Source of the DNA: an uncultured Planctomycetales bacterium
GTDB lineage: Bacteria; Omnitrophota; Gorgyraeia; Zapsychrales; JAHFFX01
Length of the DNA: 64,000 bases
Assembly (NCBI GenBank): GCA_964612665.1
Contig: CAZTCI010000004.1
Span: 270,376 to 334,375, forward strand
Direction: 5' to 3'
Every line of letters begins with the position of its first letter. Within the stretch, counting starts at the first letter, position 1. Under the pieces are notes generated by a model. That model did not search any database. It was given only the letters and a program-made list of their open reading frames with translations, and was not told the origin of the DNA. A program made the position numbers and the translations under genes. Below are positions 31,076 to 64,000 of this stretch, in pieces.

Positions 31076-31110
31076 TAGTGCAACAATGATACGGCAACTT
31101 GGAAAGTTTA

Positions 31111-31509: not shown

Positions 31510-31583
31510 CGCGGGGTGGAGCAGGCTGGTAGCTCGTCAGGCTCATAACCTGAAGGCCGCAGGTTCAAATCCTGCCCCCGCAA
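31510..31583 (+). tRNA. tRNA-Met (CAT), initiator-like (C1-A72 mismatch; near-identical to E. coli tRNA-fMet)
   Basis: cgcggggtggagcaggctggtagctcgtcaggctcataacctgaaggccgcaggttcaaatcctgcccccgcaa. An inverted-repeat-rich promoter region lies upstream (ccgcgtaaaatgaaat ... atttcattttacgcgg). Confidence 0.85.
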
Positions 31584-31596
31584 CTCTAACAAACGA

Positions 31597-31639
31597 AAGC
31601 CAGTCAGTGAGTTACATCATTGGCTGGCTTTTTTGTTTT
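31597..31639 (+). terminator. Intrinsic terminator after tRNA-Met (agccagtcagtga...tcattggctggc followed by ttttttgtttt)
   Basis: Stem-loop plus U-run. A closely related motif recurs at 38111-38148. Confidence 0.6.
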
Positions 31640-31686
31640 GTACTAAAATGGCTGCATGCTAATGCGGTGCTAATGTTCGCGTCAGA

Positions 31687-32357
31687 TTATTTTAAGTTTT
31701 CCCAAAAAAGTCCATAACGGGAAAGCAATTTTTTTAACCGGTTCGCATCATTGATGTTTGTTCTGCGTTGTCTTGAAGCTGAGTAGAGAATCCGTCCGGC
31801 CTCGGATAGGCTTCTTGATTTGCGGCATATTTTAATCACTTCTGCTAATTCAACCTTTTCTATATGGTCCATTGCCTCAATTGAGGCAGTGCTTAAGATT
31901 TCTTCTAATAAACTTGAGTCGTTACTTTCTTGAGATTTTTTTCATAGATTAAGAAGTCGTTGGATTTCTTGTTCGACGATATCGACGTCAATTCTTCCAC
32001 CGGCGGCTAATGTTGCCATTCGCGTAATGGCAGCATTCAGGTCTCGGAAGTTCGCGGTCCACGCTACTTTTTCTGATTTGGCGAATTTTAAGAATTTTTC
32101 CTTTGCTTCTTTGTTAAAAGTAATATTGAGTCCGTGATCTTTGGCGAATTTGTCTAATTCATATTGTAAATTAGCCTCGATGTCTTCCCATCTTTCTTTA
32201 AGGGCCGGCAAATAAAACGTCCATAAATTTATTCTGGTATACAGGTCCTCTCTAAAATTACCTTTCTGAACTTCTAACCCAAGATCGCGATTAGTTCCCG
32301 CAATCAGTTGAAAATCACTTTTAATTTCTTTATCAGCTTCGATTAGAGCATTTAATC
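31687..32357 (-). pseudogene. Remnant of a sigma54-dependent (NtrC/RtcR-like) transcriptional activator: C-terminal AAA+ half and Fis-type HTH, frame-disrupted and N-terminally truncated
   Basis: Manual translation gives ..IAGTNRDLGLEVQKGNFREDLYTRINLWTFYLPALKERWEDI.. (the sigma54 activator AAA+ signature), bounded upstream by an in-frame TAA. A separate ORF at 31687-31872 carries the HTH tail (SEAGRILYSASRQRRTNINDANRLKKLLSRYGL). No Walker A or N-terminal domain was found. Confidence 0.5.
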
Positions 32358-34445: not shown

Positions 34446-34446
34446 T

Positions 34447-45886: not shown

Positions 45887-45915
45887 TTGACAACATCCTC
45901 AGCGTCGATTATATT
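45887..45915 (+). promoter_or_regulatory. Near-consensus sigma70 promoter (TTGACA-17 nt-TATATT)
   Basis: -35 at 45887-45892 and -10 at 45910-45915. The ORF-track 'start codon' of the 45887 ORF is the TTG of this -35 box. Confidence 0.6.
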
Positions 45916-45925
45916 TGAAACGTCT

Positions 45926-46022
45926 TTACTGACTTTTGCACTGCAAAAGTCTAGTACTAGGCCTTTTCTCTTCGATAACGAAAAGAACGGCTTATCTTGG
46001 GAAAGGAAAAGGCCAGTAAACG
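45926..46022 (+). promoter_or_regulatory. Conserved leader/operator element, copy A. A 21-bp perfect palindrome (GACTTTTGCA-c-TGCAAAAGTC) starts 8 nt after the predicted TSS. A second helix follows (ggccttttctc...g(g/a)gaaaaggcc)
   Basis: Read from sequence. Copy B at 60676-60777 shares the first 45 bp almost identically and the closing aaaaggcca(g/a)taaa. Confidence 0.6.
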
Positions 46023-46059
46023 GTGGCGCTGAAGCCGCCAAAATTTTATCAGGCAAAGA

Positions 46060-46096
46060 GGCCCTGAACCGAAAACGGTTCGGGGTTTTTTATTTT
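46060..46096 (+). terminator. Intrinsic terminator-like hairpin (ccctgaaccg-aaaa-cggttcgggg followed by ttttttatttt) abutting the ATG of the PAS-LuxR gene
   Basis: 9/10-bp stem and an 11-nt U-rich tract. Lies between the promoter/leader and the CDS, suggesting attenuation control. Confidence 0.55.
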
Positions 46097-46990
46097 ATGG
46101 TGAATAAAAATCCCATGGCCAGCAAATTACCTTCCCAAAATTACCAACACGATCTACTTTTATCCGACGAAGAATTCTTAAGGGATTTTTTTGAAAACTC
46201 GCCCATTGGTTTCCATGTTTTCGGACCTGATAAAATTATTCAGGCCATTAATCAAGCCGAATTGAATATGCTGGGCTATCTTCGCGAGGAAATTATTGGG
46301 CGTAAAAAATGGTCAGATCTAATCATTCCACAACAGCGCGCTCAATTTGAACAGCATTGGAAAGATATTTTAAAGGTGGGGCGGGTCATTGACCTGCGTT
46401 ATACATTGCGTACAAAAACCGGTGGGTCGATCGACGTCATGTTAAACGCCTCGGCGCGGTTTAGCCCGTCGGGAAATCTTCTGAACACCCGCGGCACGGT
46501 TTTGGAAATCAGTCATTTTAATAAAGCTTATCAGGCCTTGCAGAATTCTGTCATTTCTTTAAAACAGCAAAAACAATTGCTGGAACAGCAGAACCAAGCG
46601 CTTAATGTTCTGCTCGCCAATCTTGAGATTGAAAAACAGACGCTTAAAAACAATGTGAATGCGAATTTAGAAAAATTGATCCTGCCGCTTTTAAAGAAAC
46701 TCAAACACCGCTCCAACACGTCGGATGAACAGTATCTAGAACTTTTAGAAAAGAATTTTTTAGGGCTCACATCCGGTTTCGGCCATAAGCTGCTTAATCC
46801 GCGCTGGAAACTCAGCCCGCGGGAAATTGAAATCTGTAATATGATCAAAAGCGGACTGTCAACCAAGGCGATCGCCGATACACTATGCGTCTCGGAACGG
46901 ACGATCGAGCATCACCGTAATCATATCCGTAAAAAACTGGCGTTAACGAAAAATCGGATGAACTTGGTTAGTTATTTGCAATCTTTATAG
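46097..46990 (+). CDS. PAS-domain transcriptional regulator with C-terminal LuxR/FixJ-type HTH
   Basis: PAS-like N-terminal region (FFENSPIGFHVFGPD..). C-terminal LSPREIEICNMIKSGLSTKAIADTLCVSERTIEHHRNHIRKKL. The 5' extension to 45887 is rejected. Confidence 0.6.
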   Translation: MVNKNPMASKLPSQNYQHDLLLSDEEFLRDFFENSPIGFHVFGPDKIIQAINQAELNMLGYLREEIIGRKKWSDLIIPQQRAQFEQHWKDILKVGRVIDLRYTLRTKTGGSIDVMLNASARFSPSGNLLNTRGTVLEISHFNKAYQALQNSVISLKQQKQLLEQQNQALNVLLANLEIEKQTLKNNVNANLEKLILPLLKKLKHRSNTSDEQYLELLEKNFLGLTSGFGHKLLNPRWKLSPREIEICNMIKSGLSTKAIADTLCVSERTIEHHRNHIRKKLALTKNRMNLVSYLQSL

Positions 46991-47179
46991 AGAATAAAAT
47001 ACCTAGTGATATAGGTGTTTTGTAGGCGATTGAAGTTTTTAAGCTAACCGGTGCTCTTGTCTTTCCGTCGGAGATCTAAAAATGTGTGTGGTCTTTTACA
47101 ATTTAAAAAGCAGCCAGGTCGTCTTGAGGTTAACTTTCCCGACGAGATTAATCTCAAATAGATTTTAGAAGAATGGGTA

Positions 47180-47375
47180 TTGACGACAAACGCGGATGAA
47201 ATATACTTAGACCGCTAATAGATTTTAAGGTAAGCGCAGACGGTTACCTTAAGTAAGTTTCGGTGAAGAAACATTTTGGACAATGAAGCCCAATATCCCT
47301 CGAGGGGGAAATTGGGGTTTTTGTTTATGGGCAATGAAGCCTTGAACCACGTTTGGTTCAGGGCTTTTTGTTTTT
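47180..47375 (+). promoter_or_regulatory. nirB leader: sigma70-like promoter (TTGACG-16-TATACT, 47180-47207), a 9-bp perfect hairpin (47225-47252), then an intrinsic terminator (47338-47375) about 125 nt before nirB
   Basis: Read from sequence. The terminator stem is agccttgaacc/ggttcagggct plus ttttgttttt. A GC-rich nested-palindrome tract (47420-47460) follows. Confidence 0.45.
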
Positions 47376-47498
47376 ACATCACCCCGCTACTCCGCTGCTT
47401 CCTTGCTAACTACAAGAGCGTGATACCCGCGGGGGGATTGATCCACCCCCGGCGGGTGGGGTGATTTTAGGAAAATGACATTTGAATTGGGAGTGAGA

Positions 47499-49991
47499 AT
47501 GAAAAAATTAGTTGTCATCGGAAACGGCATGGCGGGGGCGCGCGTGGTTGAAGAAATTTTGGGACGGGCGCCGGATAAGTTTGAAATCGTTATGTTCGGC
47601 GCTGAACCTTACGGCAATTATAACCGTATCCTGCTCAGTAACGTGTTGAATCAAACTCAAGAGCCCGACGACATTTTTATTAATCCTTTAAGCTGGTATA
47701 AAGAAAACCGCATTACCCTGCACGCGGGCGTGAAAGCGGTCAAGATTGATACCGAACGCCGTGTGGTTATTGGTCGTCCACTTCAGCCGCGCGCCGCGGC
47801 CTATGCGGTACATGATGACAATGCTTTTGTCTTTGAGAAGATTGAGGAACCTTATGACTATCTTATTATCGCGACGGGTTCCCGGCCTTTTGTTCCGCCG
47901 ATGGAAGGATTTTCCGGACAAGGAACATTTTTGTTTAGGACAATTGACGATTGTGAACGCATCGCCTCTTACGCGAAAAATTGCCGCAAAGCGGTTGTGA
48001 TCGGCGGCGGATTGTTGGGGCTGGAAGCTGCCCGGGGGTTAATGACCCATCATGTGGACGTAGCAATTGTGGAAGCTGCCGCGCAGTTAATGCCGGCTCA
48101 GTTAGATGTCGAATCCGCGCAGATTTTAAGACGCACTATGGAGGGTATGGGATTAACGATCTTGACCGACCGTAAGACGGCGCGCATTCATAAAGTGGAT
48201 AGTAAGATTCATTCATTGATTTTTGCCGACGGATCAACGCTGCCTGCCGATATGGTCGTGGTCAGCGCTGGCATCCGTCCGATTACTGAGGTGGCTCAAG
48301 ATTCAGGCTTAAAAATCAACAAAGGCATTGTGTGCAACGATCAAATGCAGACGAGTGATCCAAACATTTTTGCGGTCGGCGAATGCGTTGAACACCGCGG
48401 CAAATTATACGGATTGGTTGAACCGATTTGGGAGCAGGCGCGGATGATTGCGGATATCTTAAGTGACTTTAATCCTAAAGCAGCTTATCAGGGTTCGAAG
48501 ACCGGGACCAAATTAAAAGTGATGGGCGTTGATTTAATTTCTTTAGGTGAAAAAGAACCGGGAATGGATAGCGACGAGGTTGTGGTGTATCGCGAACCCA
48601 ATCGTGGCATTTATAAAAAGTTAATCATCCGCGACAATAAATTGTACGGCGCGATTCTGCTTGGTGATGCCGCCGCGTCGGATGCATTAATACAGATGTT
48701 TCTTAATGAACAAGTTGTTCCAGAAAATCGTTCCAATCTCTTGTTCGGCGAAGTTAAAGGAACCGCGTTTGTTGAAGCGGCGGATTTGCCGGACCACGCG
48801 CAGATCTGCAATTGTAACGGTGTTTCAAAAAGTAAAATTCTAAACGCGATCGACAGCGGCTGCGAGACTGTCGCCAGCGTCGGGGCCAGGACCAAGGCTG
48901 GTAAAGGCTGCGGATCATGCCGTGATTTAATCGCCCAGATCATTGAATCAAAATTAGGCAAGGTAGCTTACGATCCAAGCGAGCATTATTACGCGCCTGG
49001 AATTCCTTTGGAAAAATCACAATTGGTCGCGGAAATAAAAGCGAAAAATTTGAAATCGGTCAGCGCTGTTTTTCAAGCTTTGGCCGATGGAAAAGAAGAC
49101 CCGGACAGCAAAACTGGACTGGCGTCTTTATTAAAAACGATTTGGCCGAAAGATTATGAAGACGAACGCGACGCGCGTTTTATTAACGACCGCGTGCATG
49201 CGAATATTCAAAAAGACGGGACGTATTCGGTTGTGCCCCGGATCTACGGCGGTGTCACAACGCCCGATGAGTTAATGCGCATCGCCCAGGCCGCGGTCAA
49301 ATACAAAGTCAAGATGGTCAAAATCACCGGCGGGCAGCGGATTGATTTGCTCGGTATCAAAAAAGCGGATTTACCTTCCATTTGGAAAGAACTCGGGATG
49401 CCAAGCGGCCACGCGTACACAAAAGCGTTTCGCACCTGCAAAAGTTGCGTGGGCACAGATTTTTGCCGCTATGGTTTGGGCGATTCAATCAGCCTCGCCC
49501 AGAAAATCGAATACCGTTTTCAAGGGATTGAATCCCCGCACAAAATGAAATTAGCGACGGCCGGTTGTCCGCGCAATTGTTCAGAAGCTTATGTCAAGGA
49601 CATCGGGGCGGTCGCGATCGGCGATGATAAATGGGAAATTTATATTGGCGGTGCCGCAGGTAGTTCGGTGCGCAAAGGCGATCTTCTTTACACGGCGACC
49701 GGTCATGACGAAACATTGAAGATCGTCGGGCGGTTCATTCAATACTACCGTGAACATGGAAAATATTTGGAGCGCACTTACGCGTTTGCGGAACGGATCG
49801 GGATCAATGTTTTAAAAAGTATTCTGATCGAGGATTCTTTAGGAATCTGCGGTCAATTGGATGAACGCATTCAAGAAGCGGTTGATGCTTATAAAGATCC
49901 ATGGAAAGAAGCCGAGCTGCCGTTTTATCCGTCTCAGTTTGAAGGGCCGCAATTAGTCGAAGTTCTTAAGGAAGCTGAAAATAATGGTTAA
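47499..49991 (+). CDS. nirB: Assimilatory NAD(P)H nitrite reductase large subunit
   Basis: N-terminal FAD/NAD fold (KKLVVIGNGMAG). Central BFD-like [2Fe-2S] Cys pairs. C-terminal siroheme/[4Fe-4S] motifs (TCKSCVGTDFC...AGCPRNC). The ATG at 47499 with a GGAG Shine-Dalgarno is preferred. The ORF-track start is 47475. Confidence 0.85.
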   Translation: MKKLVVIGNGMAGARVVEEILGRAPDKFEIVMFGAEPYGNYNRILLSNVLNQTQEPDDIFINPLSWYKENRITLHAGVKAVKIDTERRVVIGRPLQPRAAAYAVHDDNAFVFEKIEEPYDYLIIATGSRPFVPPMEGFSGQGTFLFRTIDDCERIASYAKNCRKAVVIGGGLLGLEAARGLMTHHVDVAIVEAAAQLMPAQLDVESAQILRRTMEGMGLTILTDRKTARIHKVDSKIHSLIFADGSTLPADMVVVSAGIRPITEVAQDSGLKINKGIVCNDQMQTSDPNIFAVGECVEHRGKLYGLVEPIWEQARMIADILSDFNPKAAYQGSKTGTKLKVMGVDLISLGEKEPGMDSDEVVVYREPNRGIYKKLIIRDNKLYGAILLGDAAASDALIQMFLNEQVVPENRSNLLFGEVKGTAFVEAADLPDHAQICNCNGVSKSKILNAIDSGCETVASVGARTKAGKGCGSCRDLIAQIIESKLGKVAYDPSEHYYAPGIPLEKSQLVAEIKAKNLKSVSAVFQALADGKEDPDSKTGLASLLKTIWPKDYEDERDARFINDRVHANIQKDGTYSVVPRIYGGVTTPDELMRIAQAAVKYKVKMVKITGGQRIDLLGIKKADLPSIWKELGMPSGHAYTKAFRTCKSCVGTDFCRYGLGDSISLAQKIEYRFQGIESPHKMKLATAGCPRNCSEAYVKDIGAVAIGDDKWEIYIGGAAGSSVRKGDLLYTATGHDETLKIVGRFIQYYREHGKYLERTYAFAERIGINVLKSILIEDSLGICGQLDERIQEAVDAYKDPWKEAELPFYPSQFEGPQLVEVLKEAENNG

Positions 49992-50013
49992 CTTCTTTCA
50001 AAAGGGATGAGCC

Positions 50014-50391
50014 ATGGAAAAAATTTTACAAATCAATTTGGGCGCGGTGGGACAAATTCCTCTTGGCCAAGGACGTTGTTATGTGGTCAACGGCCATGAT
50101 ATCGCGGTATTCTGCAGCCGTAACCGTAAATTTTTTGCCGTTGAGAATCGTTGTCCGCACCGCGGCGGCCCTTTATCCGACGGAGTAATAGGTGAAGACC
50201 GGGTGGTCTGTCCATTGCATGGCCATAAATTTGATTTAACAACTGGTAAAGGCAGTGAACCGCATGAATGTATTCAAGTATTTCGCGTGCGTGAAGAAAA
50301 TGGTGATCTTTGGATCGAGTACCCAATGTCGCTTTTAAATTTTTCATCTCAGTCTAAAGCTGATATTACAGATTTGATGAAAGAAAATTAA
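50014..50391 (+). CDS. nirD: Nitrite reductase small subunit (Rieske-type)
   Basis: CPHRGGPLSDG...CPLHGHKFDLTTG Rieske motifs. 125 aa. Confidence 0.8.
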   Translation: MEKILQINLGAVGQIPLGQGRCYVVNGHDIAVFCSRNRKFFAVENRCPHRGGPLSDGVIGEDRVVCPLHGHKFDLTTGKGSEPHECIQVFRVREENGDLWIEYPMSLLNFSSQSKADITDLMKEN

Positions 50392-50423
50392 TTCCAAGAA
50401 CAAGCCCTGGGTTATCCAGCGAA

Positions 50424-51815
50424 TTGAACTACAGGCAAAAACGAAGGGGGTTGGTCATGCGCAGATTGTTGACAAGATGTTTGATACCGACGAAATTTTG
50501 GTTTTATGTGATGGTGGTTGGAAGTTTGCTGTGCGGGTCTATCATTCAAAGCCATGCAGCGAATTTGGAAAAGGATGAACTGACCATAGGGTTCATCAAG
50601 CTCGCTGATTGTGTCCCGTTAGTGGTGGCTAAGGAAAAAGGTTTTTTTGAAGAAGAAGGCCTTTTTGTCACGCTTCAACCCCAGGCGAATTGGAAAGTTT
50701 TGATGGACCGGGTCATTGACGGCCAGCTCGACGGAGCGCACATGTTAGCTGCCGCGCCGTTGGGCCACACGATCGGTCTTTTAACTAAAGCTCATATCAT
50801 TATTCCCTATGTGTTAAGTGTCAACGGCGCTGGTATCACGGTTTCGAATGAGGTCTGGCAAAAAATGAAACCGCATGTGAAACAAGAAGACGGCAAGCCC
50901 GTTCATCCGATTAGTGCTGAAGCTTTGAAACCAGTCGTCGATGAATTTAAAGGAGAAGGAAAAAGTTTTAAGATGGCGATCACTTATCCCATCGGAACGC
51001 ACAATTATGTGGAAAGGTATTGGCTGGCCGCCGGCGGTATTAATCCGGGTATGTATACGGCAACAGATAGTTCGGGGATGACGGATGCCGATGTTCAACT
51101 TTCCGTAACGCCGCCGCCGCAGATGGCGGCGACCCTTGAGTCGGGCACGATTCATGGTTTTTGCGTCGGAGAGCCATGGAACCAGCAATGCGTTTTTAAA
51201 GGAATTGGTGTCCCGGTCACCTCAAGTTATTTTGTGAACCGGGGAATCCCGGATAAAGCTTTTGGTGTCACTAAACAATGGGCGGATGAACACCCGAACA
51301 CGCTTAAAGCTTTAGTAAAAGCGCTCATTCGCGCCGGTCAATGGCTCGACGAAGATAACGGCAAAAACCGTGATGAAGCCGCGAACCTTTTGTCCAAACC
51401 CGAATACGTCGGCGCTGATTATAAAGTCATTCGGCAAATGATGACGGGTAATTTCGAATATGAAAAAGGTGATAAACGCTCTGAACCGGATTGGGATTTG
51501 TTTTTCCGGGACAATGCTTCCTATCCTTTTTACAGCGGTGCGATTTGGTATTTAACTCAAATGCGTCGCTGGGGGCAAATCGCGGAGCCCAAGCCGGATA
51601 AATGGTACGACGACACGGCAAAAAAAGTTTACCGGCCCGACATTTGGCTGGCCGCGGCCCAAGAATTGGTGAAGGAAAAAAAGTTAAGCGAAGCCGATAT
51701 TCCTCAAACCGAAGGCTACAAAGCCCCGGCTTCAGAATTTATCGACGGGTTTACTTATGACGGGCGTAAACCTAATGAATATCTTAAGAATTTTAAAATC
51801 GGTAATAACAATTAA
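50424..51815 (+). CDS. nrtA: Nitrate ABC transporter substrate-binding protein (NrtA/CmpA family)
   Basis: Signal peptide plus an NMT1/NrtA-like periplasmic domain. Operon with the permease and two ATPases. Confidence 0.75.
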   Translation: MNYRQKRRGLVMRRLLTRCLIPTKFWFYVMVVGSLLCGSIIQSHAANLEKDELTIGFIKLADCVPLVVAKEKGFFEEEGLFVTLQPQANWKVLMDRVIDGQLDGAHMLAAAPLGHTIGLLTKAHIIIPYVLSVNGAGITVSNEVWQKMKPHVKQEDGKPVHPISAEALKPVVDEFKGEGKSFKMAITYPIGTHNYVERYWLAAGGINPGMYTATDSSGMTDADVQLSVTPPPQMAATLESGTIHGFCVGEPWNQQCVFKGIGVPVTSSYFVNRGIPDKAFGVTKQWADEHPNTLKALVKALIRAGQWLDEDNGKNRDEAANLLSKPEYVGADYKVIRQMMTGNFEYEKGDKRSEPDWDLFFRDNASYPFYSGAIWYLTQMRRWGQIAEPKPDKWYDDTAKKVYRPDIWLAAAQELVKEKKLSEADIPQTEGYKAPASEFIDGFTYDGRKPNEYLKNFKIGNNN

Positions 51816-51837
51816 ACAAGCTAATTAAGGAAACACA

Positions 51838-52851
51838 ATGTTATTAAAAAAGCAAATTTTAAAAAATTCCAAAGGGCAGGTATCCATAAGTTCAGCCCAG
51901 GCTTTTTCCGGAGGAATAAATAAAGATCTGCGTTTCTTTTTAAAATCTTTATGGCTAACGCTGGGCATTCCTTTTATAGCGATTGCTATTTTTTTAATGA
52001 TCTGGTCGGCGACCGCGCAGAACATTCATACAAGTTTAGGGAGCCTGCCTGGTCCGCGTGATGTTTTTGCTCAGGCCAAAACATTGTGGCAGGAACACTG
52101 GCAGGAACAGGAGAAGCAGAAAGAATTTTATCAAAAACAAAAAGACGCGAACGCCAAAAAATTAGCGGAAGACCCGACGGCAAAAGTCAAAATCCGCAAG
52201 TATACAGGCAAGCCGACATACTTTGATCAAATCTTAAGAAGCTTGCTCACTGTTTTCACCGGATTTTTGATCGCCTCGGCCGTTGCTATTCCGCTGGGCA
52301 TTGTCTGCGGACTTAACCGCACAATACTGGCGGCGTTGAATCCTTTTATTCAGATCTTTCGTCCAATCTCACCGCTGGCGTGGCTGCCTTTGGTGACCAT
52401 GGTTGTGAGCGCGGTCTATACAACCTCGAACGGACCGGTTGAAAAATGTTTTATTATTTCGGCAGTTACAGTTTCATTGTGTTCATTGTGGCCGACGCTG
52501 ATTAATACGGCGCAAGGTGTCGCGTCGGTAGATAAGGATATCGTGAATGTCTCACGCGTTCTTCGCTTGGGGCCGATGACGCATGTTTTAAAAATTATTT
52601 TGCCCGCTTCACTGCCTTTGGTCTTTACGGGTTTACGCATTTCACTTGGCGTCGGATGGATGGTTTTGATCGCTTCCGAAATGCTCGCGCAAAATCCAGG
52701 TTTGGGAAAATTTGTTTGGGATGAATTTCAAAACGGCAGCAGTGAATCGCTGGCGCGGATAATGGTCGCGGTTTTAACGATCGGGCTCATCGGTTTTGTT
52801 TTGGACCGCGTTATGGTCCTTCTGCAGAAGACGGCAAGCTTTAATAGATAA
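51838..52851 (+). CDS. nrtB: Nitrate ABC transporter permease
   Basis: BPD-transport permease with the EAA-like loop ([16 protein letters not shown]). Confidence 0.8.
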
Positions 52852-52861
52852 GGAGAGAGCG

Positions 52862-53725
52862 TTGGCTTTTTTAGAGTTAATTGAGGTCGATAAAGGATAC
52901 GGCGAAGGCAACAGCCGCAGTGAGGTTTTAAAAGGCATCAATCTTACCGTCGAGAAAGGCGAGTTTGTCGCGATTATCGGTTTTTCCGGAAGCGGAAAAA
53001 CGACTTTGATTAATTTGATCGGCGGGCTTTTGAAAGCGGATGACGGCATTGTTTTATTGCGGGGGAAACATATCGAAAAACCCGGCCCAGACCGCGGGAT
53101 GGTTTTTCAAAATTATTCTTTATTGCCGTGGCTCAGTGTTTACGGCAACATCGCGCTCGCCGTGAATAATCTGTTCCCGCAGTGGTCGAAGGAAAAACGC
53201 GACGAACATATCCGCCGTTACATTGACATGGTGCATTTGACGCCGGCGTTAGATAAAAAACCGATGGAACTTTCCGGCGGGATGCGCCAGCGCGTTTCGG
53301 TCGCCCGGGCACTCGCCATGGACCCGGAGATTCTTCTTTTAGATGAACCGTTAAGCGCGCTGGATGCTTTAACCCGCGGCACACTTCAAAAAGAAATTGA
53401 AACGATTTATCGCACCGAGAAAAAAACTGTTGTCTTGATTACCAATGATGTGGATGAAGGGTTGATATTAGCGGACCGGATTATCCCGCTTAATCCCGGT
53501 CCTCGCGCGACGTTAGGCCCTATCTTTTCAATTGATCTGCCACGTCCTCGAGATAAAGCGGCCATGAATCACAATCCTCAATATAAAAAATTACGTAACG
53601 CGATCATTGAATATCTTCTCGACGTTGGATCGAAACGAAACGTCAAGAACAATGAGATAGACTCTTTGACTCTGCCGGATCTGAACCCGATCGATGTGCG
53701 CCAGAGCCGGTATGTGAATGTATAA
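52862..53725 (+). CDS. nrtD: Nitrate ABC transporter ATP-binding protein
   Basis: Walker [10 protein letters not shown], signature LSGGMRQRV and Walker B LLLDEP. A TTG at 52862 with an AAGGAGAG Shine-Dalgarno is preferred over the ORF-track start at 52796, which lies inside nrtB. Confidence 0.8.
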
Positions 53726-53736
53726 AGAAAGGAACC

Positions 53737-54603
53737 ATGAACGATTATCTGGAATTTGCGAATCTTTCCAAAGAATACACGACGGCAAAAGGCAATTTTG
53801 TCGCTGTTGAGGGATTTCATCTTAATGTGAGCAAAGGCGAATTTGTTTCCATTATTGGTCATTCCGGATGCGGCAAATCAACCGTGCTCATGATGGCTGC
53901 CGGATTAATTGAAATCACTTCCGGCTATATTTGTTTAGCCACCCGAGAAATCGACGGGCCGGGGCCGGACCGTGGGATTGTGTTTCAATCGCCAAGTTTG
54001 TTGCCGTGGATGACGGCGCTTGAGAATGTAATGTTAGGTGTTAAACAAGTTTTTCCCCATGGAACGCAAAAGCAGCGTGAAGATATTTGTAAATACTATC
54101 TGACCCGCGTCGGGCTTGGCGACGCGTTTTATAAAAAAGCCTGCGATCTTTCTAACGGCATGAGACAACGCGTCGGTATCGCCCGGGCTTTCGCGCTTAA
54201 ACCCAAGCTGCTTCTTTTGGATGAACCGTTTGGAATGCTCGATTCGTTGACAAGGGCCGAATTGCAGGAAGTATTGCTGGAAGTCTGGAGCCGCGAACAG
54301 ATAACGGCCTTGATGGTTACTCACGACGTGGATGAAGCGTTGTTTCTTTCGGACCGCATTGTGATGATGACGAGCGGTCCCCGCGCGAAAGTTGGGAAAA
54401 TTTTGAATGTCGATTTTGAAAGGCCGCGTCACCGCAAAGATGTGATTGAACATCCACGCTATTACGACTGTCGCGGATCTTTATTGAACTTTTTAGAAGG
54501 AAGGGAATCTGAGGTCACTCACAAAGGCCAGACAAAGACGTCAGAGCCGCAGGCCCTTCGGCTCAAGACAGAACCAAAGAAGGATTATGTCAACGCCTCC
54601 TGA
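53737..54603 (+). CDS. nrtC: Nitrate ABC transporter ATP-binding protein (second ATPase)
   Basis: Walker [10 protein letters not shown], signature LSNGMRQRV and Walker B LLLDEP. Confidence 0.8.
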
Positions 54604-54681
54604 GATATCCTCTCACATCGCCACACAATGGAACGACATCTAAAAATAAAGCGTGAATAATGCGAGAAATGGAATCTCTCT

Positions 54682-56019
54682 ATGACTAATCGAAAATCTT
54701 TGATGGCGGTTTTGGCTGTTTTATTGATGGGAACGGTCAGCGAAGCTGGCGACTGGATTAATAAAAAATTACCCGATGCGATTAAAGCGGATCTTCAGGT
54801 ACGTTATCGCCTGGAGTATCGCAGTGACTTTGATTTCAATGAAAGCAAGGACGACAACGACGCTTATAATCTTTATCGCACACGTTTGAATTTAAAGTTT
54901 ACACCCATCAAACAATTGTATCTGTTCACGCAAGCGCAGGACGCGCGAATCACACATTCGCAATTCATTGATAAATCCCCGTATGAAAATTTTATGGATA
55001 CCCGCCAGCTATATCTTAATTACGAAGATGAAGTGCAGTTTGAACCCTTGTCGATGAATAAAGTTTCACTTCGTGCGGGGCGTCAGGAATTTGCTTATGG
55101 TGCGGAACGGTTGATCGGCGGATTTAACTGGTCGAATGTGGCGCAAACGTTCGACGGCGGGAAAATCGGTTTTCATTTTATTCCACTGCATTTGCAAGTC
55201 GATTTTTTCGGCGGCGATAAAACTTCGATTAAATCCCCGCGGGAAGCGGACGATCTTTTTGACGGTTCATCCAAAGACAGGATGTACGCGTATTACGCGA
55301 CGGCCAAACCGTATAAAGATTTGATTGTGGAAAATTATTTAATCCGCCGTAAGACCGGCAAAAACATTTCCTTTGGTCCCAGCGGATCAGGGGCCGTCGA
55401 TGAGTTTACTTTTGGCGGGCGGCTTTTGAAGCCTGCTTCGTCGGGTCATTTTGATTATGAATTAGAAACCGCCGGGCAATGGGGCGATTTCAATGACAAG
55501 GATGTCCGCGCGGCGATGGCGGTCGGAATTATTGGCTATACGATTAAGCACCGTTTTGCGCCGCGTTTTGCTTTTGAGTATGATTACGGCACGGGTGATT
55601 CCAACCCAACGGATGGAACCCGCCGGACATTTGACAATCTTTATCCGACAAACCATCCGTTTTATGGATTCATGGATTTGTTCAGCATTCAAAACCTGAA
55701 TGATTACCGGTATCAAGCGAGTTTCAAGCCGCATAGTAAATGGAAATTGCAGTCAGATTATCATTTGTTGTTTTTAGACACGCCGAAAGATTCGTTTTAT
55801 TCCGCCGGACGGGCCGTGACCCGGACAGCGTCGGCGTCGCTTTCGGATGTCAATCCGCACGTCGGTGATGAAGTCGATTTAACGGCCGAATATAAAGCAA
55901 CGCCATGGCTCAATATGTTGTTTGGCTATTCGCATTTTTTTGCCGGTAAATATTTGCAAGAAACCGGCGCCAATGATGACGCGGACTTCTTTTATCTACA
56001 AACTCAGTTTACCTTATGA
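54682..56019 (+). CDS. Outer-membrane porin (alginate-export/OprO-P-like family often linked to anion uptake loci)
   Basis: Signal peptide (..VSEA). About 420-aa beta-rich protein with alternating patterns and an aromatic-rich C-terminus (FFYLQTQFTL). Sits inside the nitrate gene cluster. Confidence 0.5.
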   Translation: MTNRKSLMAVLAVLLMGTVSEAGDWINKKLPDAIKADLQVRYRLEYRSDFDFNESKDDNDAYNLYRTRLNLKFTPIKQLYLFTQAQDARITHSQFIDKSPYENFMDTRQLYLNYEDEVQFEPLSMNKVSLRAGRQEFAYGAERLIGGFNWSNVAQTFDGGKIGFHFIPLHLQVDFFGGDKTSIKSPREADDLFDGSSKDRMYAYYATAKPYKDLIVENYLIRRKTGKNISFGPSGSGAVDEFTFGGRLLKPASSGHFDYELETAGQWGDFNDKDVRAAMAVGIIGYTIKHRFAPRFAFEYDYGTGDSNPTDGTRRTFDNLYPTNHPFYGFMDLFSIQNLNDYRYQASFKPHSKWKLQSDYHLLFLDTPKDSFYSAGRAVTRTASASLSDVNPHVGDEVDLTAEYKATPWLNMLFGYSHFFAGKYLQETGANDDADFFYLQTQFTL

Positions 56020-56028
56020 CGCTAAGTG

Positions 56029-56066
56029 ACCCATCTACACCTACGGGGTGTAGATGGGTAAGTTTT
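56029..56066 (+). terminator. Intrinsic terminator: perfect 13-bp stem (acccatctacacc-tacgg-ggtgtagatgggt) followed by aagttttt
   Basis: Arms at 56029-56041 and 56047-56059 are exact reverse complements. Confidence 0.7.
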
Positions 56067-56076
56067 TAAATAACTT

Positions 56077-57702
56077 ATGGATAGAAAATTGAATGAACAT
56101 AATTTTCTTGAGGGAACAGATCTCACGGCGGTCGAGAAATTTTCGTTGCAGCATGACTTCCGTCAGATTTCTAAGGGCGATAGTCTTTACGAAGATCTTA
56201 TTCCTAAAACAACACCCGGCGACGGAGAACAATACGCTTTTAATGTTGATCTCGACAAATGCACCGGCTGTAAAGCGTGCGTGGCGGGCTGTCACAGTGA
56301 AAATGGTTTAGAAGACGATGAGATTTGGCGGTCGGTTGGGATCATTCACACCATCGAGGAAACGAAGCCCGTCATTCAACATATCACCAGTGCCTGCCAT
56401 CATTGTCTGGACCCGGCCTGTTTGGAAGGCTGCCCCGTTGATGCTTATGAAAAAAATCCGAAAACCGGCGTCGTCAAACATCTGGATGACCAATGTATCG
56501 GCTGTCAGTACTGCACTTTCAAATGTCCTTACGATGTTCCGAAATACAATAAGAAAAAAGGCATCGTCCATAAATGTGACATGTGCATCAGCCGTTTAGA
56601 AGTCGGCCAAGCCCCAGCCTGCGTGCGCGCGTGTCCTAACGGCGCCATCACAATCAAAATTATTAACCAAGCACAAGTGCGCGAGAATCCGACGGCGTAT
56701 GTCAATATTCCGCGGGCGCCGGATTCAAACTACACTCTTCCTACAACCCAATACCAGACCACAAAAACCTTAAGCGCCAGCATGGTCACTGGAGATTTTA
56801 ATAAAGTGCATTTGGAACATTCGCATTGGCCGCTTATTGTGATGCTCGTCTTGACCCAGCTTTCCGTCGGGACTTTGGGGTTTAGTCTTTTGGCGCAAAT
56901 GTTTTTGCCGTTTGATTGCCAGATGACTTTTTATCCATACCATGCGCTGGTGGGATTGGGCGCGGGGATTTTGGCTTTGATCGTGAGTGTTTTTCATCTC
57001 GGCCGGCCGTTGTATGCGTTTCGGGCGGTTATTGGATTGGGACATTCCTGGTTGAGCCGGGAGATTGTGACCTTCGGCGCGTTCGCTTTTTTAGCGATCG
57101 TATTGACCTTGCGTTTGTGGATTCATCATGATTTAGAAAATGTTGTGAATATTCTAGCGGCGGCAACGGTACTCGTCGGAATTTTCGGTGTTTTTTGTTC
57201 GGTTAAAGTTTATCGGGACACGCGCCGGCCGTTTTGGGACCATCCGGTTACCGACGTGAAATTCTTTCTAACGACGACCATTTTAGGCACGGCGACGGTT
57301 TTATGTTCGAGTTTGATTTATTCGGAACTATCCGCGCTTCAAATCATGAAATGGTTCGGCGTCAGATTTTGTTGGATCATTGCGACTTGTTCCTGTGCCA
57401 AAATGATTTTAGAAGCATCCTTTTTTAAATATTTATACGATCCACAACAAACCCTTTTAAAAAAATCCGCCTGGATCATGACCGAGCCTCTAAAAAATGT
57501 GACAAGGAATCGTTTTGGATGGGGAATTGTGGGTGGAATTATTTTACCCGTGGTTTGCGCCACGCAATTTATGTCTTGGAATCTTTTGGGAATCCTTTCT
57601 TGCAGTTTATTGATTTTAATCTTATCGCTCATCGCGGAATTTTGTGAACGTTATTTATTCTTCCGTTCGGTTGTGGCCTTAAAGATGCCGGGAGGGCTTT
57701 GA
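56077..57702 (+). CDS. Fusion of a 4Fe-4S ferredoxin-type subunit (DmsB/NrfC-like, 4 Cys clusters) with a polytopic NrfD/DmsC-like membrane anchor
   Basis: [41 protein letters not shown] and CDMCISRL...CVRACP. About 8 TM helices from residue 240. The stop overlaps the start of the molybdoenzyme gene. Confidence 0.65.
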
Positions 57703-59903
57703 TGAAATCTTCCAATAATATTTGGATGCAAAAAAACGGGCCGCTTTCCGACGAGCTGGCGCTGGATCTCGTTTCTGAAGATTTAGGAAAACTGCCGCGC
57801 CGGTTAATCCCGGATAAAATTATTAACAGCGTCTGCGGTTTTTGTTCAACGGGATGCAGTTTATCCGTTCATATGAAAGGAAACCAGCCGGTCAATTTAA
57901 CGCCGAACCGAAATTATCCGGTTAACTTAGGCGAGGCGTGCCCGAAGGGGTGGGAATCGTTGACGCCTTTAAAAGCATCAGACCGCGCAACAACGCCGTA
58001 TCTTCGCGATAAAAACGGTCGCTTCATCAAAGTGAATTGGGACACCGCTTTAAGTTTTTTTGTAAGCCGGTTTAAAGCAATTCAACAGAAATACGGACCA
58101 GAGAGTCTGGCTTTCTTGAGTACGGGACAAATTTGTACCGAGGAGATGGCGTTTCTGGGAGCTCTGGCTAAATTTGGGATGGGCATTCTTCATGGCGACG
58201 GGAACACCCGTCAATGTATGGCCACCTCCGTCGTGAGTTACAAAGAGGCCTTCGGATTTGACGCGCCGCCTTTTACCTATCAGGATTTTGAAGAGTCCGA
58301 CTGCGTTATTTTTATCGGCGCCAATCCCTGCATTGCGCATCCGATCATGTGGCAGCGGGTGTGCCGTAATAAAAATGAACCGCTTATTATCGTCGTCGAT
58401 CCGCGCAAAACCGAGACCGCCATGGCCGCCACCCATCATTATGCGATTCAGCCTAAAAGCGATTTAGTTTTATTATATGGGCTGGCCTATATTTTGATTA
58501 AGAAAGGTTGGGTTGATGAAACTTACATCAAGAATCATACGCAGGGATTCGAGGCCTTTCGGCAACATGTACGTGTGTTCACCCCGATGTTTGTTTCTAG
58601 ACAGACTGGTTTATCCAAAGAAGACCTCTGCGATTTTGCGGCGATGATCCATTATGGCCGTCGGGTGTCGTTTTGGTGGACGATGGGCGTTAATCAAAGT
58701 TATGAAGGCGTGCGGACCGCGCAGGCGATTATTAATTTATGTTTAATGACCGGGAACATCGGACGTCCAGGCACCGGACCCAACTCGATTACCGGCCAAT
58801 GTAATGCGATGGGGTCGAGATTGTTCAGCAACACGACGAATCTTTTGGGCGGTCATAGTTTCTTAAAAGAAGCTGATCGACGTAAGATCGCGCAGATTTT
58901 AGGCATCGATGTTAATTTGATTCCAACGCAAGAGAGCTTAGCTTATGATCAAATTATTGACCAAATAGCTGTTGGCAAAATTAAAGGGCTGTGGGTCATT
59001 GCCACCAATCCCGCGCATTCGTGGATTGATCAAAAAGAAGTGAGAGGGATCTTGGGTAATTTAGATTTTCTGGTCGTTCAGGATATGTACACGACAACGC
59101 AGACCGCGAAGATGGCGGATTTGATTCTTCCAGCGGCGGGGTGGGGTGAAAAGGAAGGCACGGTGATTAATTCCGAACGGCGGATTGGATTGTTCAGAAA
59201 GGCCGCTCGCCCGCCGGGCGATGCCTTGAGTGATTTTGAAATTTTTAAATTGATCGCCCAGTACTGGGGATGCTCAGGGCTTTTTAAAGAATGGAATACA
59301 CCCGAGGATGTTTTTCAAAGCATGAAAAAAATTTCCAGAGGCACACCTTGCGATATCACCGGAATCAAAAATTACGCAATGTTAGAAGAGTACGGCGGTA
59401 TTCAATGGCCGTTTCCTGAAGGTGAACGCTTAAAAGACAATCAGCGGCGGCTTTTCGAAGACGGAAAATTCTTTCATGACAATAAAAAGGCACGCTTCAT
59501 TTTTGAAGATCCCAAGGAAAATCCAGAAAAACCTGATCACAAATATCCATTTATTCTTTTAACCGGCCGCGGGACATCAGCTCAGTGGCACACGCAAACG
59601 CGCACGGAAAAATCTCCGGTGCTGCGGACGATGTATCCGCCGGAAGTTTATGTGGAAGTCAATCCCAACGATGCTCAGGCGCTTGCGTTACATGATCAAC
59701 AATGGATTTATGTGACTTCTCGTCGGGCACAGATTAAAGCCCGGGCTTTTGTTGTGCCGTCAGTTCAACCAGGACAAGTGTTTATCCCGATGCATTATGA
59801 AGAAACCAACCGGCTGACGTTTTCGCTGGTTGATCCTTATTCAAGACAGCCGTCGTATAAAATATGTGCGGTGCAATTGTCGGTGAAGCCGTATTATCCA
59901 TAA
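57699..59903 (+). CDS. nasA: Molybdopterin (bis-MGD) oxidoreductase, assimilatory nitrate reductase-like catalytic subunit, no Tat signal
   Basis: N-terminal [4Fe-4S] motif [11 protein letters not shown]...C. About 730 aa with typical MopB-superfamily spacing. No RR twin-arginine motif, so it is cytoplasmic. Nitrate-assimilation context. Confidence 0.75.
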
Positions 59904-59941
59904 ATTTGAAGGGTCACCAAGTCACCCGTCACAAAGTCACC

Positions 59942-60430
59942 ATGATACAGAACAATCCAGAAGTTCTTGCTGTTTGCACTTCCAATGGAGGAATTCCGAA
60001 AATTCCTCGAGCCTTCGCTTACGTCTTTAAAACCGGTTTGGCCGGTGACGGACATAATCATGATAAACACAAAACACCATTACAGGCGGTTTGTTTACAG
60101 GATGTTGAATTTTTGGAAGAGTTAATGCGAGAGGGTTTTCCTTTGACCTTGGGAACAATTGGGGAAAATGTCACGGTGCGGGATTTATTCGTCCAGAAAC
60201 TTCCGATTGGAACGGTTCTCGAATTTTCCGGCGGCGTTGTCATTGAATTAACAAAAGTTCGCAAACCGTGTTATGTGTTAGATGCCATTGACCCAAAATT
60301 AAAAGAAGTGATTATGGGACGCTGTGGTTATTATGCCAGAGTGATTCGTGAAGGTGTCATTAAGCCGGGCGACAAAATTATTTTACATAAAGAGTGTTGT
60401 TCAAATTTAAGTTATGTCCATGTAATTTAA
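59942..60430 (+). CDS. MOSC-domain protein (YiiM/YcbX-like)
   Basis: GENVTVRDL...GGVVIELTKVRKPCYVLD...GVIKPGDKIIL is the MOSC beta-barrel signature with the conserved Cys. The ATG at 59942 is preferred over the ORF-track start at 59864, which lies inside nasA. Confidence 0.6.
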   Translation: MIQNNPEVLAVCTSNGGIPKIPRAFAYVFKTGLAGDGHNHDKHKTPLQAVCLQDVEFLEELMREGFPLTLGTIGENVTVRDLFVQKLPIGTVLEFSGGVVIELTKVRKPCYVLDAIDPKLKEVIMGRCGYYARVIREGVIKPGDKIILHKECCSNLSYVHVI

Positions 60431-60675
60431 GCCGGCAAAATTACCCGCGGCGAAAATTTTAGATTTGCCTTTGCCCGCCTAATAATATTTAATCCCGCCT
60501 GCCAGCCTTTGCCTTGCTTCGCCAGCATGACAACGGAGCCGCCAAACCTGCCGCCAGTCAAACACGCGCCAATAATGTCCGGTTCCTTTGCCGATTCAAT
60601 GACGAGCCAATCGATTTCCGGAATCGAAACGGCAAAGTCGTCGCGTAAGGAATCATGTGACGCATAAAATAATTC
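60427..60675 (-). pseudogene. galK: C-terminal 85-aa remnant of a galactokinase-like GHMP kinase, truncated at the palindromic element copy B
   Basis: ..LFYASHDSLRDDFAVSIPEIDWLV..IIGACLTGGRFGGSVVML.. matches the GalK C-terminal region (SHxSxRDDxEVSxPExDxLV; GxRMTGGGFGGC). Homology starts exactly where element B ends. No N-terminal 300 aa lies upstream. Confidence 0.5.
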
Positions 60676-60777
60676 TCTTACTGACTTTTGCATTGCAAAA
60701 GTCTAGTATTAGGCCTTTTCTCCACGAGAATAATAGAACAACCTTATCTTTGGGAGAGAAAAGGCCAATAAAGCGTT
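60676..60777 (+). promoter_or_regulatory. Conserved leader/operator element, copy B. Palindrome GACTTTTGCA-t-TGCAAAAGTC at 60683-60703. Helix ggccttttctc...gagaaaaggcc. Lies 180 nt upstream of the FMN reductase gene
   Basis: Aligned by eye with copy A. Differences fall in loops or are compensatory (the palindrome centre is c in A and t in B). Confidence 0.6.
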
Positions 60778-60955
60778 GAGGTTTTCGCTTCTAAGCGCTT
60801 GAACGGTTTTAATCACCCGTTCATTCTCACCAACCCGATGAGAAAAATTTGTGAAGAAAACTAAAAACAGTTGAAGTTCATGGTCATGAAATTGTATGAT
60901 GGAAGTCCTCATTGTTATTGTTTGATTGTTTTGTAAATTGAGAAAGGAGTTTGTT

Positions 60956-61537
60956 ATGGCCGAGCCAAAAATTGTTGCGTTTGCCGGAAGCACGCGGACG
61001 GATTCTTACAATAAGAAACTCATCAGAGTAGCCGTTGAAGCGGCTAAGAACGCGGGAGCGGAAGTCACGCTTATTGATTTGCGGGATATTCCAATGCCGC
61101 TTTACGACGGAGATCTTGAAAAAGAGAAGGGACTGCCAGATAACGCCAAGAAATTTAAGAAGCTCTTGATTGAACATCCAGGTTTTCTTATTTCAACGCC
61201 GGAATACAATAGTTCCATTCCGGGTGTTTTAAAGAATGCGATTGATTGGGCATCACGGGCGGAAAAACCAGATGAACCGCCGCTGGTTTGTTTTGCCAAC
61301 AAAGTCGTTGGACTCATGTCTGCTTCTCCCGGTGGATTAGGCGGTTTGCGGAGTTTAACTCATGTCCGCGCCATTTTAGAAAACATCGGCGCACTTGTGA
61401 TCCCGCAACAGATCGCCATCTCTAAAGCCCACGAAGCTTTTGACGCTAACGGGAAGCTCAAGGATGCTAAACAGCAAAGCGCCGTCGAGAATGTTAGCAA
61501 ACGACTGGTTCAAATTTTAACTAAACTTTCACAATAA
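60956..61537 (+). CDS. NAD(P)H-dependent FMN reductase (SsuE/flavodoxin-like fold)
   Basis: KIVAFAGSTRTDSYNKKL...ISTPEYNSSIPGVLKNAIDW. ATG at 60956 with an AAGGAG Shine-Dalgarno. Confidence 0.75.
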   Translation: MAEPKIVAFAGSTRTDSYNKKLIRVAVEAAKNAGAEVTLIDLRDIPMPLYDGDLEKEKGLPDNAKKFKKLLIEHPGFLISTPEYNSSIPGVLKNAIDWASRAEKPDEPPLVCFANKVVGLMSASPGGLGGLRSLTHVRAILENIGALVIPQQIAISKAHEAFDANGKLKDAKQQSAVENVSKRLVQILTKLSQ

Positions 61538-63193: not shown

Positions 63194-64000
63194 ATGAAAA
63201 AGATACTCATTTTAATAATGGGGGGATCGGTTTTTCTCATTTCAAATGCGCTTTGTTACAGTTTTGATCAATTTGCTGTCGACAGCAGCCGTCTGGCCCA
63301 AGCTGCCGGCGGATCAACCGGAACTTCATCGGGAGCCACTACGGGAACTTCTACTTCTACAGGAAGTCCAACGGGCACAGGCACAACGACAGGCAGCAGT
63401 AACGGGAGTTTTGGCAACACAGGTACGGGAAAAAGTTCTTCCGATACGACGGGAATAATGAGCGGGACCGGTTCCGGCCTTGATATTTCGACGAGCGGGA
63501 CTGGGACGACAACTTCGGGCAGTACTGGAATCACGGACGGCAGTGGTATGGGAACTTCAACAGAAACAACAACTGGCACAGGTTCAACTTCTGGCATGTC
63601 TGGTTCGTTGACAAATCCTTCTGATGTAGGTGTTGGTACAATTGGGTCGTCTCCTTCAAATCGATTTGGTCCGATCGATGCGAATGGCACAGGTTCTAAC
63701 ACAAGCAGTTCGAGTGGAACCTCAGGAAACACTATGCCAGGATCAACTGATTCTACGACGAACACAGATTTTGGGAACACGAGGAGCACGGGTTCTTTTT
63801 CCGCATCTTCGACGGAATCTTCATCATCGCAAGGCGGACCGTCGAGCTCTTCAGGTATGAGAATATTTCGTGTCGGTTCGGGAACATCACTTCCTATCGG
63901 TACAAATATCCTTTCGCAAGGAACTATTACGAATATTGACCGCAGTCAACGGCAGATTTCAGTTAAGAATTCAGACACTGGCAATGTTACGACCTACAGA
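63194..64000 (+). CDS. Secreted Ser/Thr/Gly-rich low-complexity protein (partial; runs off the window end)
   Basis: AGGAGG Shine-Dalgarno then an ATG at 63194. Signal peptide MKKILILIMGGSVFLISNA, then more than 230 aa of GS/T-rich sequence (TGTSTSTGSPTGTGTTTGSS...). Confidence 0.55.
   Translation, partial: MKKILILIMGGSVFLISNALCYSFDQFAVDSSRLAQAAGGSTGTSSGATTGTSTSTGSPTGTGTTTGSSNGSFGNTGTGKSSSDTTGIMSGTGSGLDISTSGTGTTTSGSTGITDGSGMGTSTETTTGTGSTSGMSGSLTNPSDVGVGTIGSSPSNRFGPIDANGTGSNTSSSSGTSGNTMPGSTDSTTNTDFGNTRSTGSFSASSTESSSSQGGPSSSSGMRIFRVGSGTSLPIGTNILSQGTITNIDRSQRQISVKNSDTGNVTTYR

Follow-up and report, generated by a model that had tools for sequence, protein, structure and literature searches.

A small TA-flanked palindromic repeat, probably mobile, lies inside a galactokinase gene remnant of an uncultured bacterium

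Within the window, that is, the whole 64-kb stretch of DNA analysed here, a minus-strand ORF of 88 aa (60427-60693) resembles a galactokinase gene (galK) cut short beside a palindromic repeat that is found twice in the window (copies A and B), which raises the question of whether this repeat marks the point at which galK was truncated or lies inside what is left of the gene. An earlier note, made from the letters of the sequence, had favored the first option: homology to galactokinase would begin precisely at the edge of copy B, no upstream remainder would exist, and the repeat or its neighborhood would be tied to a rearrangement that deleted most of galK, hinting at a mobile, MITE-like family. 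The nature of the ORF, read in that note as the C-terminal part of a galactokinase only, is well borne out: it matches the NCBIfam galactokinase profile NF003006 at positions 261-338 of 352 (E 2.6e-14), TIGR00131 at positions 297-354 of 388 and Pfam GHMP_kinases_C (E 4e-5), and this distal block shares 53-55% identity with JGI galactokinases. Its first galactokinase-like codon, R/E, lies at 60676-60678 and adjoins copy B, such that the repeat edge is indeed where homology begins as far as the 88-aa ORF is concerned.

As a limit of the gene, this edge does not hold, for galactokinase homology resumes on the far side of the repeat. Past copy B, in the minus-strand frame of the 88-aa ORF, we found a second, proximal block of galK sequence (...FSHRVGENERVIKTVQALRSENLNAL; table 1), and the translation of this frame from 60993 to 60427 reads ...FFTNFSHRVGENERVIKTVQALRSENLNAL[LAFSLPKIRLFYYSRGEKA*Y*TFAMQKSV]RELFYASHDSLRDDF..., the outer brackets enclosing the inserted segment. 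Taken alone, the proximal block matches NF003006 at positions 232-261, the distal block taking over at 261, and it matches residues 66-114 of a JGI galactokinase (P0002; E 2e-6). When the 90 nt made up of the 88-nt repeat body (60681-60768) and one TA are taken out to restore galK, the remnant aligns to NF003006 in one stretch (233-337) that scores 81 bits, as opposed to 53 bits for the distal block alone, and to galactokinase over 134 residues with zero gaps (112 bits, E 7e-37). Likewise, each of four galactokinase queries gave, in tblastn, a single alignment spanning copy B, in which the gap was exactly 30 codons. Homology to galK is thus present on both flanks of copy B, and the repeat therefore sits inside the remnant rather than at its truncation point. 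The absence of any upstream remainder, as claimed earlier, is contradicted by these ~50 in-frame codons. As for a full-length galK running in frame across the junction, an outcome that the earlier note had also envisaged, the frame does continue, for ~50 codons only, and no intact gene is there.

The insert contributes two stop codons to the galK frame as well as an ATG (60691-60693), which is the start codon of the 88-aa ORF and sits within copy B. As a result of this repeat-borne ATG, the distal fragment was called as a gene and deposited in NCBI as an 88-aa protein (P0001), which is an annotation artefact. Once spliced, the remnant still falls below a full-length equivalog, with 81 bits against a curated NF003006 cut-off of 443 and a span limited to positions 233-337 of 352, and signs of decay are visible in its motifs (TGGGFGG has become TGGRFGG, and RHV.TEN has become HRVGEN). 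It is a gene fragment rather than a kinase, a pseudogene piece that retains about the last 135 codons only. A better description of the locus in databases would be that of a galK pseudogene with a small repeat inserted in it.

Table 1. Coordinates, in the window, of the galK remnant, the repeat copies and the neighboring features
Feature	Position	Strand	Basis or remark
Sigma-70-like promoter	45887..45915	+	TTGACA-17-TATATT, 11/12 matches; ends 11 nt before copy A
Element copy A	45927..46018	+	TA + 88-nt body (45929-46016) + TA; orientation as in copy B
Two terminator-like hairpins	46022..46091	+	After copy A, before the PAS-LuxR start
MOSC-domain gene	59864..60430	+	Last gene of the nitrate-assimilation cluster
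galK remnant, distal block	60427..60678	-	~84 C-terminal codons + stop; NF003006 and GHMP_kinases_C matches
TA, left copy, inferred TSD of copy B	60679..60680		Only direct repeat fitting the 90-nt insertion
Element copy B, body	60681..60768	+	88 nt; inverted repeats, folding, 83% identity to copy A
Hairpin 1, copy B	60683-60703	+	GACTTTTGCA/TGCAAAAGTC, of the form GACTTTTGCA-y-TGCAAAAGTC
Hairpin 2, copy B	arms 60712-60722, 60756-60766	+	Arms GGCCTTTTCTC, GAGAAAAGGCC; 33-nt loop
TA, right copy, inferred TSD of copy B	60769..60770		Restored site tcTTAAag
galK remnant, proximal block	60771..60924	-	~51 codons; frame shared with the distal block
galK truncation junction	60925..60955		tblastn homology limit 60924; FMN-reductase gene begins 60956
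NADPH-dependent FMN reductase / flavodoxin_2 gene	60956..61537	+	Pfam FMN_red, Flavodoxin_2; msrA (PMSR) next

The continuity of galK around copy B gives access to the ends of the repeat and to its target. When the 90-nt frame is slid along the junction, which reads GCTT[TA]TTGGCC...GTCAG[TA]AGAGAA on the minus strand, TA are the sole bases repeated on both sides, and the restored gene reads GCT TTA AGA GAA (A-L-R-E), with a leucine that is conserved in 4/4 homologues; the restored site itself, obtained by joining 60640-60680 to 60771-60800, is ...TTCTCTTAAAGCG.... Copy A has the same layout, with its TAs at 45927-45928 and 46017-46018, so that the short target-site duplications (TSDs) that the earlier note had proposed to look for around both copies are found at each of them as TA/TA. 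Both restored sites are TTAA (cTTTAAAc in the case of copy A), a tetranucleotide that covers 0.85% of the positions of the window. The empty site of copy B is deduced here from distant galactokinases (~50% identity), and the element ends and TSD are defined from two DNA copies, together with protein-level hints from a third one. Two other configurations were considered and ruled out: a 5-bp TSD (AAACG) at copy A, the equivalent positions of copy B being the conserved galK codons ELFYASH, which put the left boundary at 60676 or later, and a composite transposon in which copies A and B would bracket the 14.7-kb nitrate cluster, the two halves of galK flanking copy B alone. Copy B represents a rare clean filled site, in which the limits of a repeat family from an uncultured lineage can be made out together with the TA that it duplicates.

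The repeated and palindromic character of the element, already pointed out in the earlier note, is confirmed by 75 identical columns out of 90 in the alignment of copies A and B (83%; blastn E 1.9e-15; nhmmer ~1e-30 for each) and by the presence of two hairpins in each copy. Identity is unevenly distributed in this alignment: 43 bases are shared among the first 45 of the alignment, the loop of hairpin 2 is only ~40% identical, and overall the element ends are nearly invariant and this loop is variable. The pairing of hairpin 2 is nonetheless retained in both copies despite their sequence differences. Both copies fold strongly on both strands, with z-scores against shuffled sequences ranging from -4.1 to -5.1 as RNA (-5.1 for copy B) and from -6.2 to -7.1 as single-stranded DNA (-6.2 for copy B). 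The two ends of the element form a separate hairpin each, with no end-to-end pairing, and the basal stems of these hairpins are alike (GAC-TTTT...AAAA-GTC and GGCC-TTTT...AAAA-GGCC). A perfect inverted repeat, TTACTG/CAGTAA, can be drawn in copy A, but it takes in TSD and target bases, and an extended terminal inverted repeat (TIR) match of ~13/17 with one indel could equally well reflect two similar hairpins, each end being a palindrome. Outside the hairpins, the element-internal TIR is limited to 2 nt, CT/AG in copy A and CT/AA in copy B. The 88-nt body holds read-through frames only and no ORF of its own. Its GC content is 43.2% in copy A and 38.6% in copy B, that of the window being 43.8%, and no clear AT richness emerges from this comparison.

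Although no further full or half copy was detected in the 64-kb window beyond A and B (including by nhmmer), which lie 14.75 kb apart, the element is a dispersed multi-copy family. Indeed, when the translations of the two frames open through the element were used as queries against protein collections, two additional copies emerged, as spurious ORF tails, from NCBI contigs: on a 228-kb contig, the element is captured as the tail of a 61-aa ORF (P0135; ...INLF-LLTFALQKSSIRPFLLENDRTTLSWEEKRPI-ISYSKV), and on a 401-kb contig, it makes up the 3' end of an unrelated gene, which encodes a 137-aa signal-peptide protein ending in ...LLAFAFQKFSPRPFLPENDRTTLSLG (P0136). The codons of the former (CCA ATA ATH) imply that, in this third copy, the base after the right TA is an A. 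We infer that the 340-kb contig to which the window belongs and the 228-kb and 401-kb contigs come from one assembly.

Short-read data provide another, indirect view of this dispersion. In the Logan contigs (k=31) of four runs (SRR12313477-SRR12313480), those covering the locus show 100% identity throughout the span that they have in common with the window, and all end inside a copy of the element. At copy A, the left contigs stop at 45971 in two runs and the right contigs begin at 45960, again in two runs (SRR12313477, read directly in contig L021, and SRR12313478, deduced from contig extent). At copy B, the left contigs stop at 60706 in three runs and the right ones begin at 60743/60744 in two runs, the central 36 nt (60707-60742) being outside all retrieved contigs. 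Such breaks inside both copies are expected from the splitting of a de Bruijn graph wherever 30-mers are common to other copies or variants, and strain variants could be an alternative cause of them. In this regard, the repeat accounts for the fragmentation of the short-read assembly of this organism at copies A and B.

If copy B is not where galK ends, the actual break must be looked for elsewhere. It is located at ~60925, about 155 bp past copy B, beside the start of the FMN-reductase gene, which occupies the place of the absent 5' part of galK. What is missing is the N-terminal two thirds or so of the kinase (~230 profile positions), and tblastn recovered this part neither at the locus nor anywhere else in the 64-kb window. 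No element-like sequence was detected by nhmmer at the junction (60925-60955), and the N-terminal loss of galK is an event separate from the insertion of the element. The earlier proposal that copy B is the truncation point is refuted on these grounds, and a link between the element and the rearrangement that removed most of the gene finds no support in them. The junction itself is well supported, since it is found together with the element flanks at 100% identity in contigs of two to three independent runs; two of these contigs (L009 and L010) run onward from 60743/60744 and match the window, L010 being 100% identical over its full length. On its other side, the galK remnant converges on the MOSC gene, the stop codons of the two overlapping. 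The closest named relatives of this MOSC protein are found in Candidatus Omnitrophica MAGs (73% identity), on account of which the bacterium is likely to belong to the Omnitrophota. Three relatives that share the nitrate reductase-MOSC arrangement (L014, L015, and L016), and whose MOSC proteins are 62-73% identical to that of the window, lose synteny at MOSC, and downstream of it neither galK nor the element is present in any of the three. In one of them, the genes after MOSC are those of a toxin-antitoxin pair and of a type I methylase.

How, then, did the repeat come to lie in galK? A mobile element is the simplest answer, as local sequence evolution cannot break a reading frame so cleanly, and the reading that we judge probable is that copy B is a non-autonomous, MITE-like element that entered galK at the TA in the middle of a TTAA, with duplication of this TA. 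This interpretation is adopted because of the TA repeat, because body size and TA positions are equal at an unrelated second site, and because further copies exist. The mobile, MITE-like family anticipated in the earlier note is thereby retained on grounds other than those first put forward, namely a clean 90-nt in-frame insertion, TA flanks, and a galK that is contiguous around it. Mechanistically, an 88-bp body without coding capacity and with two adjacent hairpins would enter the central TA of TTAA, being moved in trans by an IS630/Tc1-mariner-like DDE transposase that duplicates TA and is presumably encoded elsewhere in the genome, and would bring two in-frame stops and an ATG into galK; in the window, none of the ~40 ORFs scanned against Pfam is a transposase. 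The main rival to the MITE reading invokes a hairpin-recognising HUH enzyme (IS200/IS605 TnpA or RAYT): the repeat would be a hairpin-dependent single-strand element, either an IS200/IS605-derived PATE or a REP/REPIN-like sequence moved by an HUH tyrosine transposase, inserted 3' of TTA or TTAC (+ strand) with no true duplication, the right TA being the element's own end. We consider this unlikely. In its favor, each element end folds into its own stable hairpin, the basal stems of hairpins 1 and 2 are alike, copies A and B have an identical orientation (n=2), and the true TIR outside the hairpins comes down to 2 nt without the TSD and target bases. Moreover, TTAC is found ahead of each DNA copy. 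This tetranucleotide is the target of IS608. IS200/IS605 elements are also devoid of TIRs and recognise terminal stem-loops (PMC2817692). However, the symmetric T-TA...TA-A arrangement at both copies, along with the A of the third copy, is a better fit to a palindromic TTAA with TA duplication, the loop of hairpin 2, at 33 nt, differs from those of REPs and IS200/IS605 ends, which are short, neither hairpin is preceded by GTAG or GTGG (hairpin 2 being preceded by CTAG/TTAG), and the Pfam scan found no TnpA or RAYT gene in the 64-kb window.

The other alternatives relate to what the repeat does or to how the locus was assembled, rather than to the enzyme that moved it. That the repeat is, first and foremost, a functional module and not a selfish element, either a structured small or leader RNA or a palindromic operator (hairpin 1 being a perfect 10-bp inverted repeat), appears very unlikely to us. 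Such a role would agree with the succession of a promoter, copy A, and two terminators upstream of the PAS-LuxR gene, with the position of copies A and B, co-oriented and upstream of plus-strand genes, at the flanks of a segment (45929-60768) that carries nirBD, nrt, nasA-like, and MOSC genes, and with strong folds on both strands in which the pairing of hairpin 2 is kept across the A/B differences. Yet the promoter and terminators lie outside the repeat and are missing at copy B, copy B is within a dead gene, the P0136 copy tails an unrelated gene, no Rfam family matches, and a fixed functional site would leave unexplained the clean 90-nt break in a coding frame. Far less credit still can be given to the idea that the element, or a block accompanying it, sits at the exact breakpoint of the rearrangement that removed galK: the 88-aa ORF does start in the element and its galK homology does start at the element edge, but the ~50 in-frame codons on the far side make the two flanks adjacent parts of one gene, and the actual break, at ~60925, is free of element-like sequence in nhmmer searches. 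An assembly or sequencing artefact, that is, a mis-join at the repeat or a frameshift giving a false truncation, is just as improbable. Short-read graphs do break at the element and 60707-60742 falls outside the retrieved Logan contigs; nevertheless, what the element separates are neighboring stretches of one gene in one frame, unlike the two sides of a mis-join, the flanks and the truncation junction recur at 100% identity in two to three independent runs, and no frameshift is needed or found.

From the perspective of known small mobile elements, the repeat resembles a miniature transposable element of the ordinary kind. Bacterial MITEs are described as shorter than 200 bp, with TA termini, target duplication, base pairing, fusions to host ORFs, and insertions in pseudogenes (PMC2229807; PMC3049150; PMC10969869), and the present element shows a size of 88 nt, no coding capacity, dispersed copies, TA termini, a TA/TA duplication, and strong pairing. 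Its nearest counterparts in this respect are RUP of S. pneumoniae (107 bp, linked to IS630-Spn1), Correia/NEMIS of Neisseria, and ERIC/IRU, which, like it, are noncoding sequences of ~100 bp with TA ends and TA target duplications, base-paired, dispersed, and sometimes found in ORFs or pseudogenes, and whose open frames likewise join host ORFs, as happens with the element in P0136. In contrast with these MITEs, its TIR is very short, its ends are in separate hairpins, and it is not clearly AT-rich. The same two-hairpin layout is found in CIR, the CerM-associated repeat of Caulobacter/Brucella, which has TA termini, no TIR, and 5' and 3' stem-loops that fold independently (PMC2229807); CIR carries a GANTC methyltransferase motif, is not known to occur inside genes, and has no described TSD, and the likeness drawn here is by description only. 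Conspicuous terminal or subterminal hairpins without long TIRs are likewise shared with IS200/IS605-derived and REP/BIME sequences (PMC2817692). REPs are defined by a GTAG or GTGG head, a GC-rich palindrome, and more than 100 occurrences per genome (PMC2817692), whereas the element has a CTAG/TTAG head, AT-rich stems, a 33-nt loop, and TA direct repeats at its flanks, which sets it apart from REP/REPIN sequences. Finally, RPE of Rickettsia is, like the element, a palindromic repeat of ~100 bp that occurs in coding frames with a size that is a multiple of three (PMC2229807), but RPE insertions preserve both the host reading frame and the function of its protein, when the element brings two stops and its host is a truncated pseudogene.

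Sequence similarity to the element was absent from the plasmid, phage, viral, JGI metagenome, and GTDB representative collections. Specifically, blastn gave no match in plasmids and phages, viral contigs gave 0 matches, and two different element patterns gave 0 matches in JGI metagenomes. The hairpin-1 palindrome alone has eight matches in GTDB species representatives, which belong to unrelated taxa and never include the adjoining linker (0/8), and these were set aside as chance occurrences since the linker is absent. An RNA family known to Rfam was likewise rejected as the identity of the repeat, neither copy reaching the gathering threshold of any family and the best local matches falling far below it; three tRNAs are the only features of the window that pass this threshold.

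The window otherwise has the appearance of ordinary chromosome, with comEC, murJ, uvrC, prfB, secA, lnt, ftsH, eno, and type IV pilus genes. Copy A is intergenic in this setting, between a divergent HTH_17/pilus operon and the gene of a PAS-LuxR regulator, upstream of the latter, and the PAS-LuxR gene is followed by a nitrite/nitrate assimilation cluster comprising nirBD-like genes, an ABC transporter, a porin, Fe-S/DmsC and molybdopterin subunits, and MOSC. No counterpart of the promoter or the terminators was found at copy B, and these signals of copy A belong to host sequence, outside the repeat. We regard as quite unlikely the broader proposal that the repeat is an undescribed kind of mobile element of Omnitrophota-like bacteria, with dissimilar hairpin ends and a TTAA target, possibly moved by an HUH enzyme, and whose copy A would have been domesticated as a structured 5' leader or sRNA of the PAS-LuxR regulator at the head of the nitrate cluster. 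A broader biological question would arise only if the mobilising enzyme, or a regulatory role of copy A, proved unusual. With regard to the latter, the predicted promoter before copy A and the predicted terminators after it suggest that copy A is probably transcribed within a host leader or small RNA, and a co-opted role of this copy is possible on the same predictions, being compatible with the insertion of a MITE-like element.

The two copies of the 88-nt two-hairpin repeat, A and B, share one orientation at a distance of 14.75 kb (45929-60768) and enclose a PAS-LuxR regulator gene together with the entire nitrite/nitrate assimilation cluster through its terminal MOSC-domain gene. Recombination between copies A and B could delete this cluster. 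A composite transposon with the two copies as its ends is ruled out, because sequence of the decayed galactokinase gene (galK) lies on either side of copy B. At 60427-60430 (TTAA), the MOSC gene on the + strand and the galK remnant on the - strand have overlapping stop codons, so galK, before its decay, must have converged on MOSC with hardly any space between the two.

At copy B, the ends of Logan contigs (k=31 assemblies of sequencing runs covering the locus) imply that 30-mers within 60743-60773 and 60677-60706 are shared with other sequences, and these 30-mers extend 2-4 bases into the flank past the TA. Such flank bases would be unexpected if the other sequences were insertions at unrelated sites; they could instead stem from population allelic variants of copy B, or from other copies with similar TTAA-rich flanks.

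Copy A stands within an ordered series of regulatory-like elements (see table), the PAS-LuxR gene starting directly 3' of the two hairpins. This arrangement is reminiscent of either a ~170-nt small RNA or a leader of the attenuator type; Rfam returned no family match for the interval, the top hit being the trpB motif at 25.6 bits versus a gathering score of 59.

Features around copy A and the tRNA (window positions)
Feature	Position	Strand	Remark
Sigma-70-like promoter, copy A, two terminator-like hairpins, PAS-LuxR start, in that order	45887-46115		promoter near-consensus, TTGACA-17-TATATT
tRNA	31510-31583		short ORFs like further gene fragments around and downstream, 31099-32211
GIY-YIG-like N-terminus, short ORF	31099-31266	+	translation judged by eye only
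Two pieces resembling a sigma-54-type activator in its C-terminal part	31687-31872 and 31942-32211	-	translations judged by eye only

In L014 (GCA_016206745.1, JACQQW010000086.1, 6949-10300), the closest named relative, a PhdYeFM/ParE-like toxin-antitoxin pair follows the MOSC gene, and beyond it lies an apparent methylase of a type I restriction-modification system, divided between two frames (translations read by eye). Given this content, the region downstream of MOSC appears to vary among these Omnitrophota genomes.

Pfam gave zero matches for the large ORFs 34342-37275 (+) and 63268-63789 (-), the latter being of low complexity and rich in proline, valine and glutamate. Finally, the short ORFs near the tRNA suggest, from translations judged by eye, that gene decay in the window extends beyond galK.
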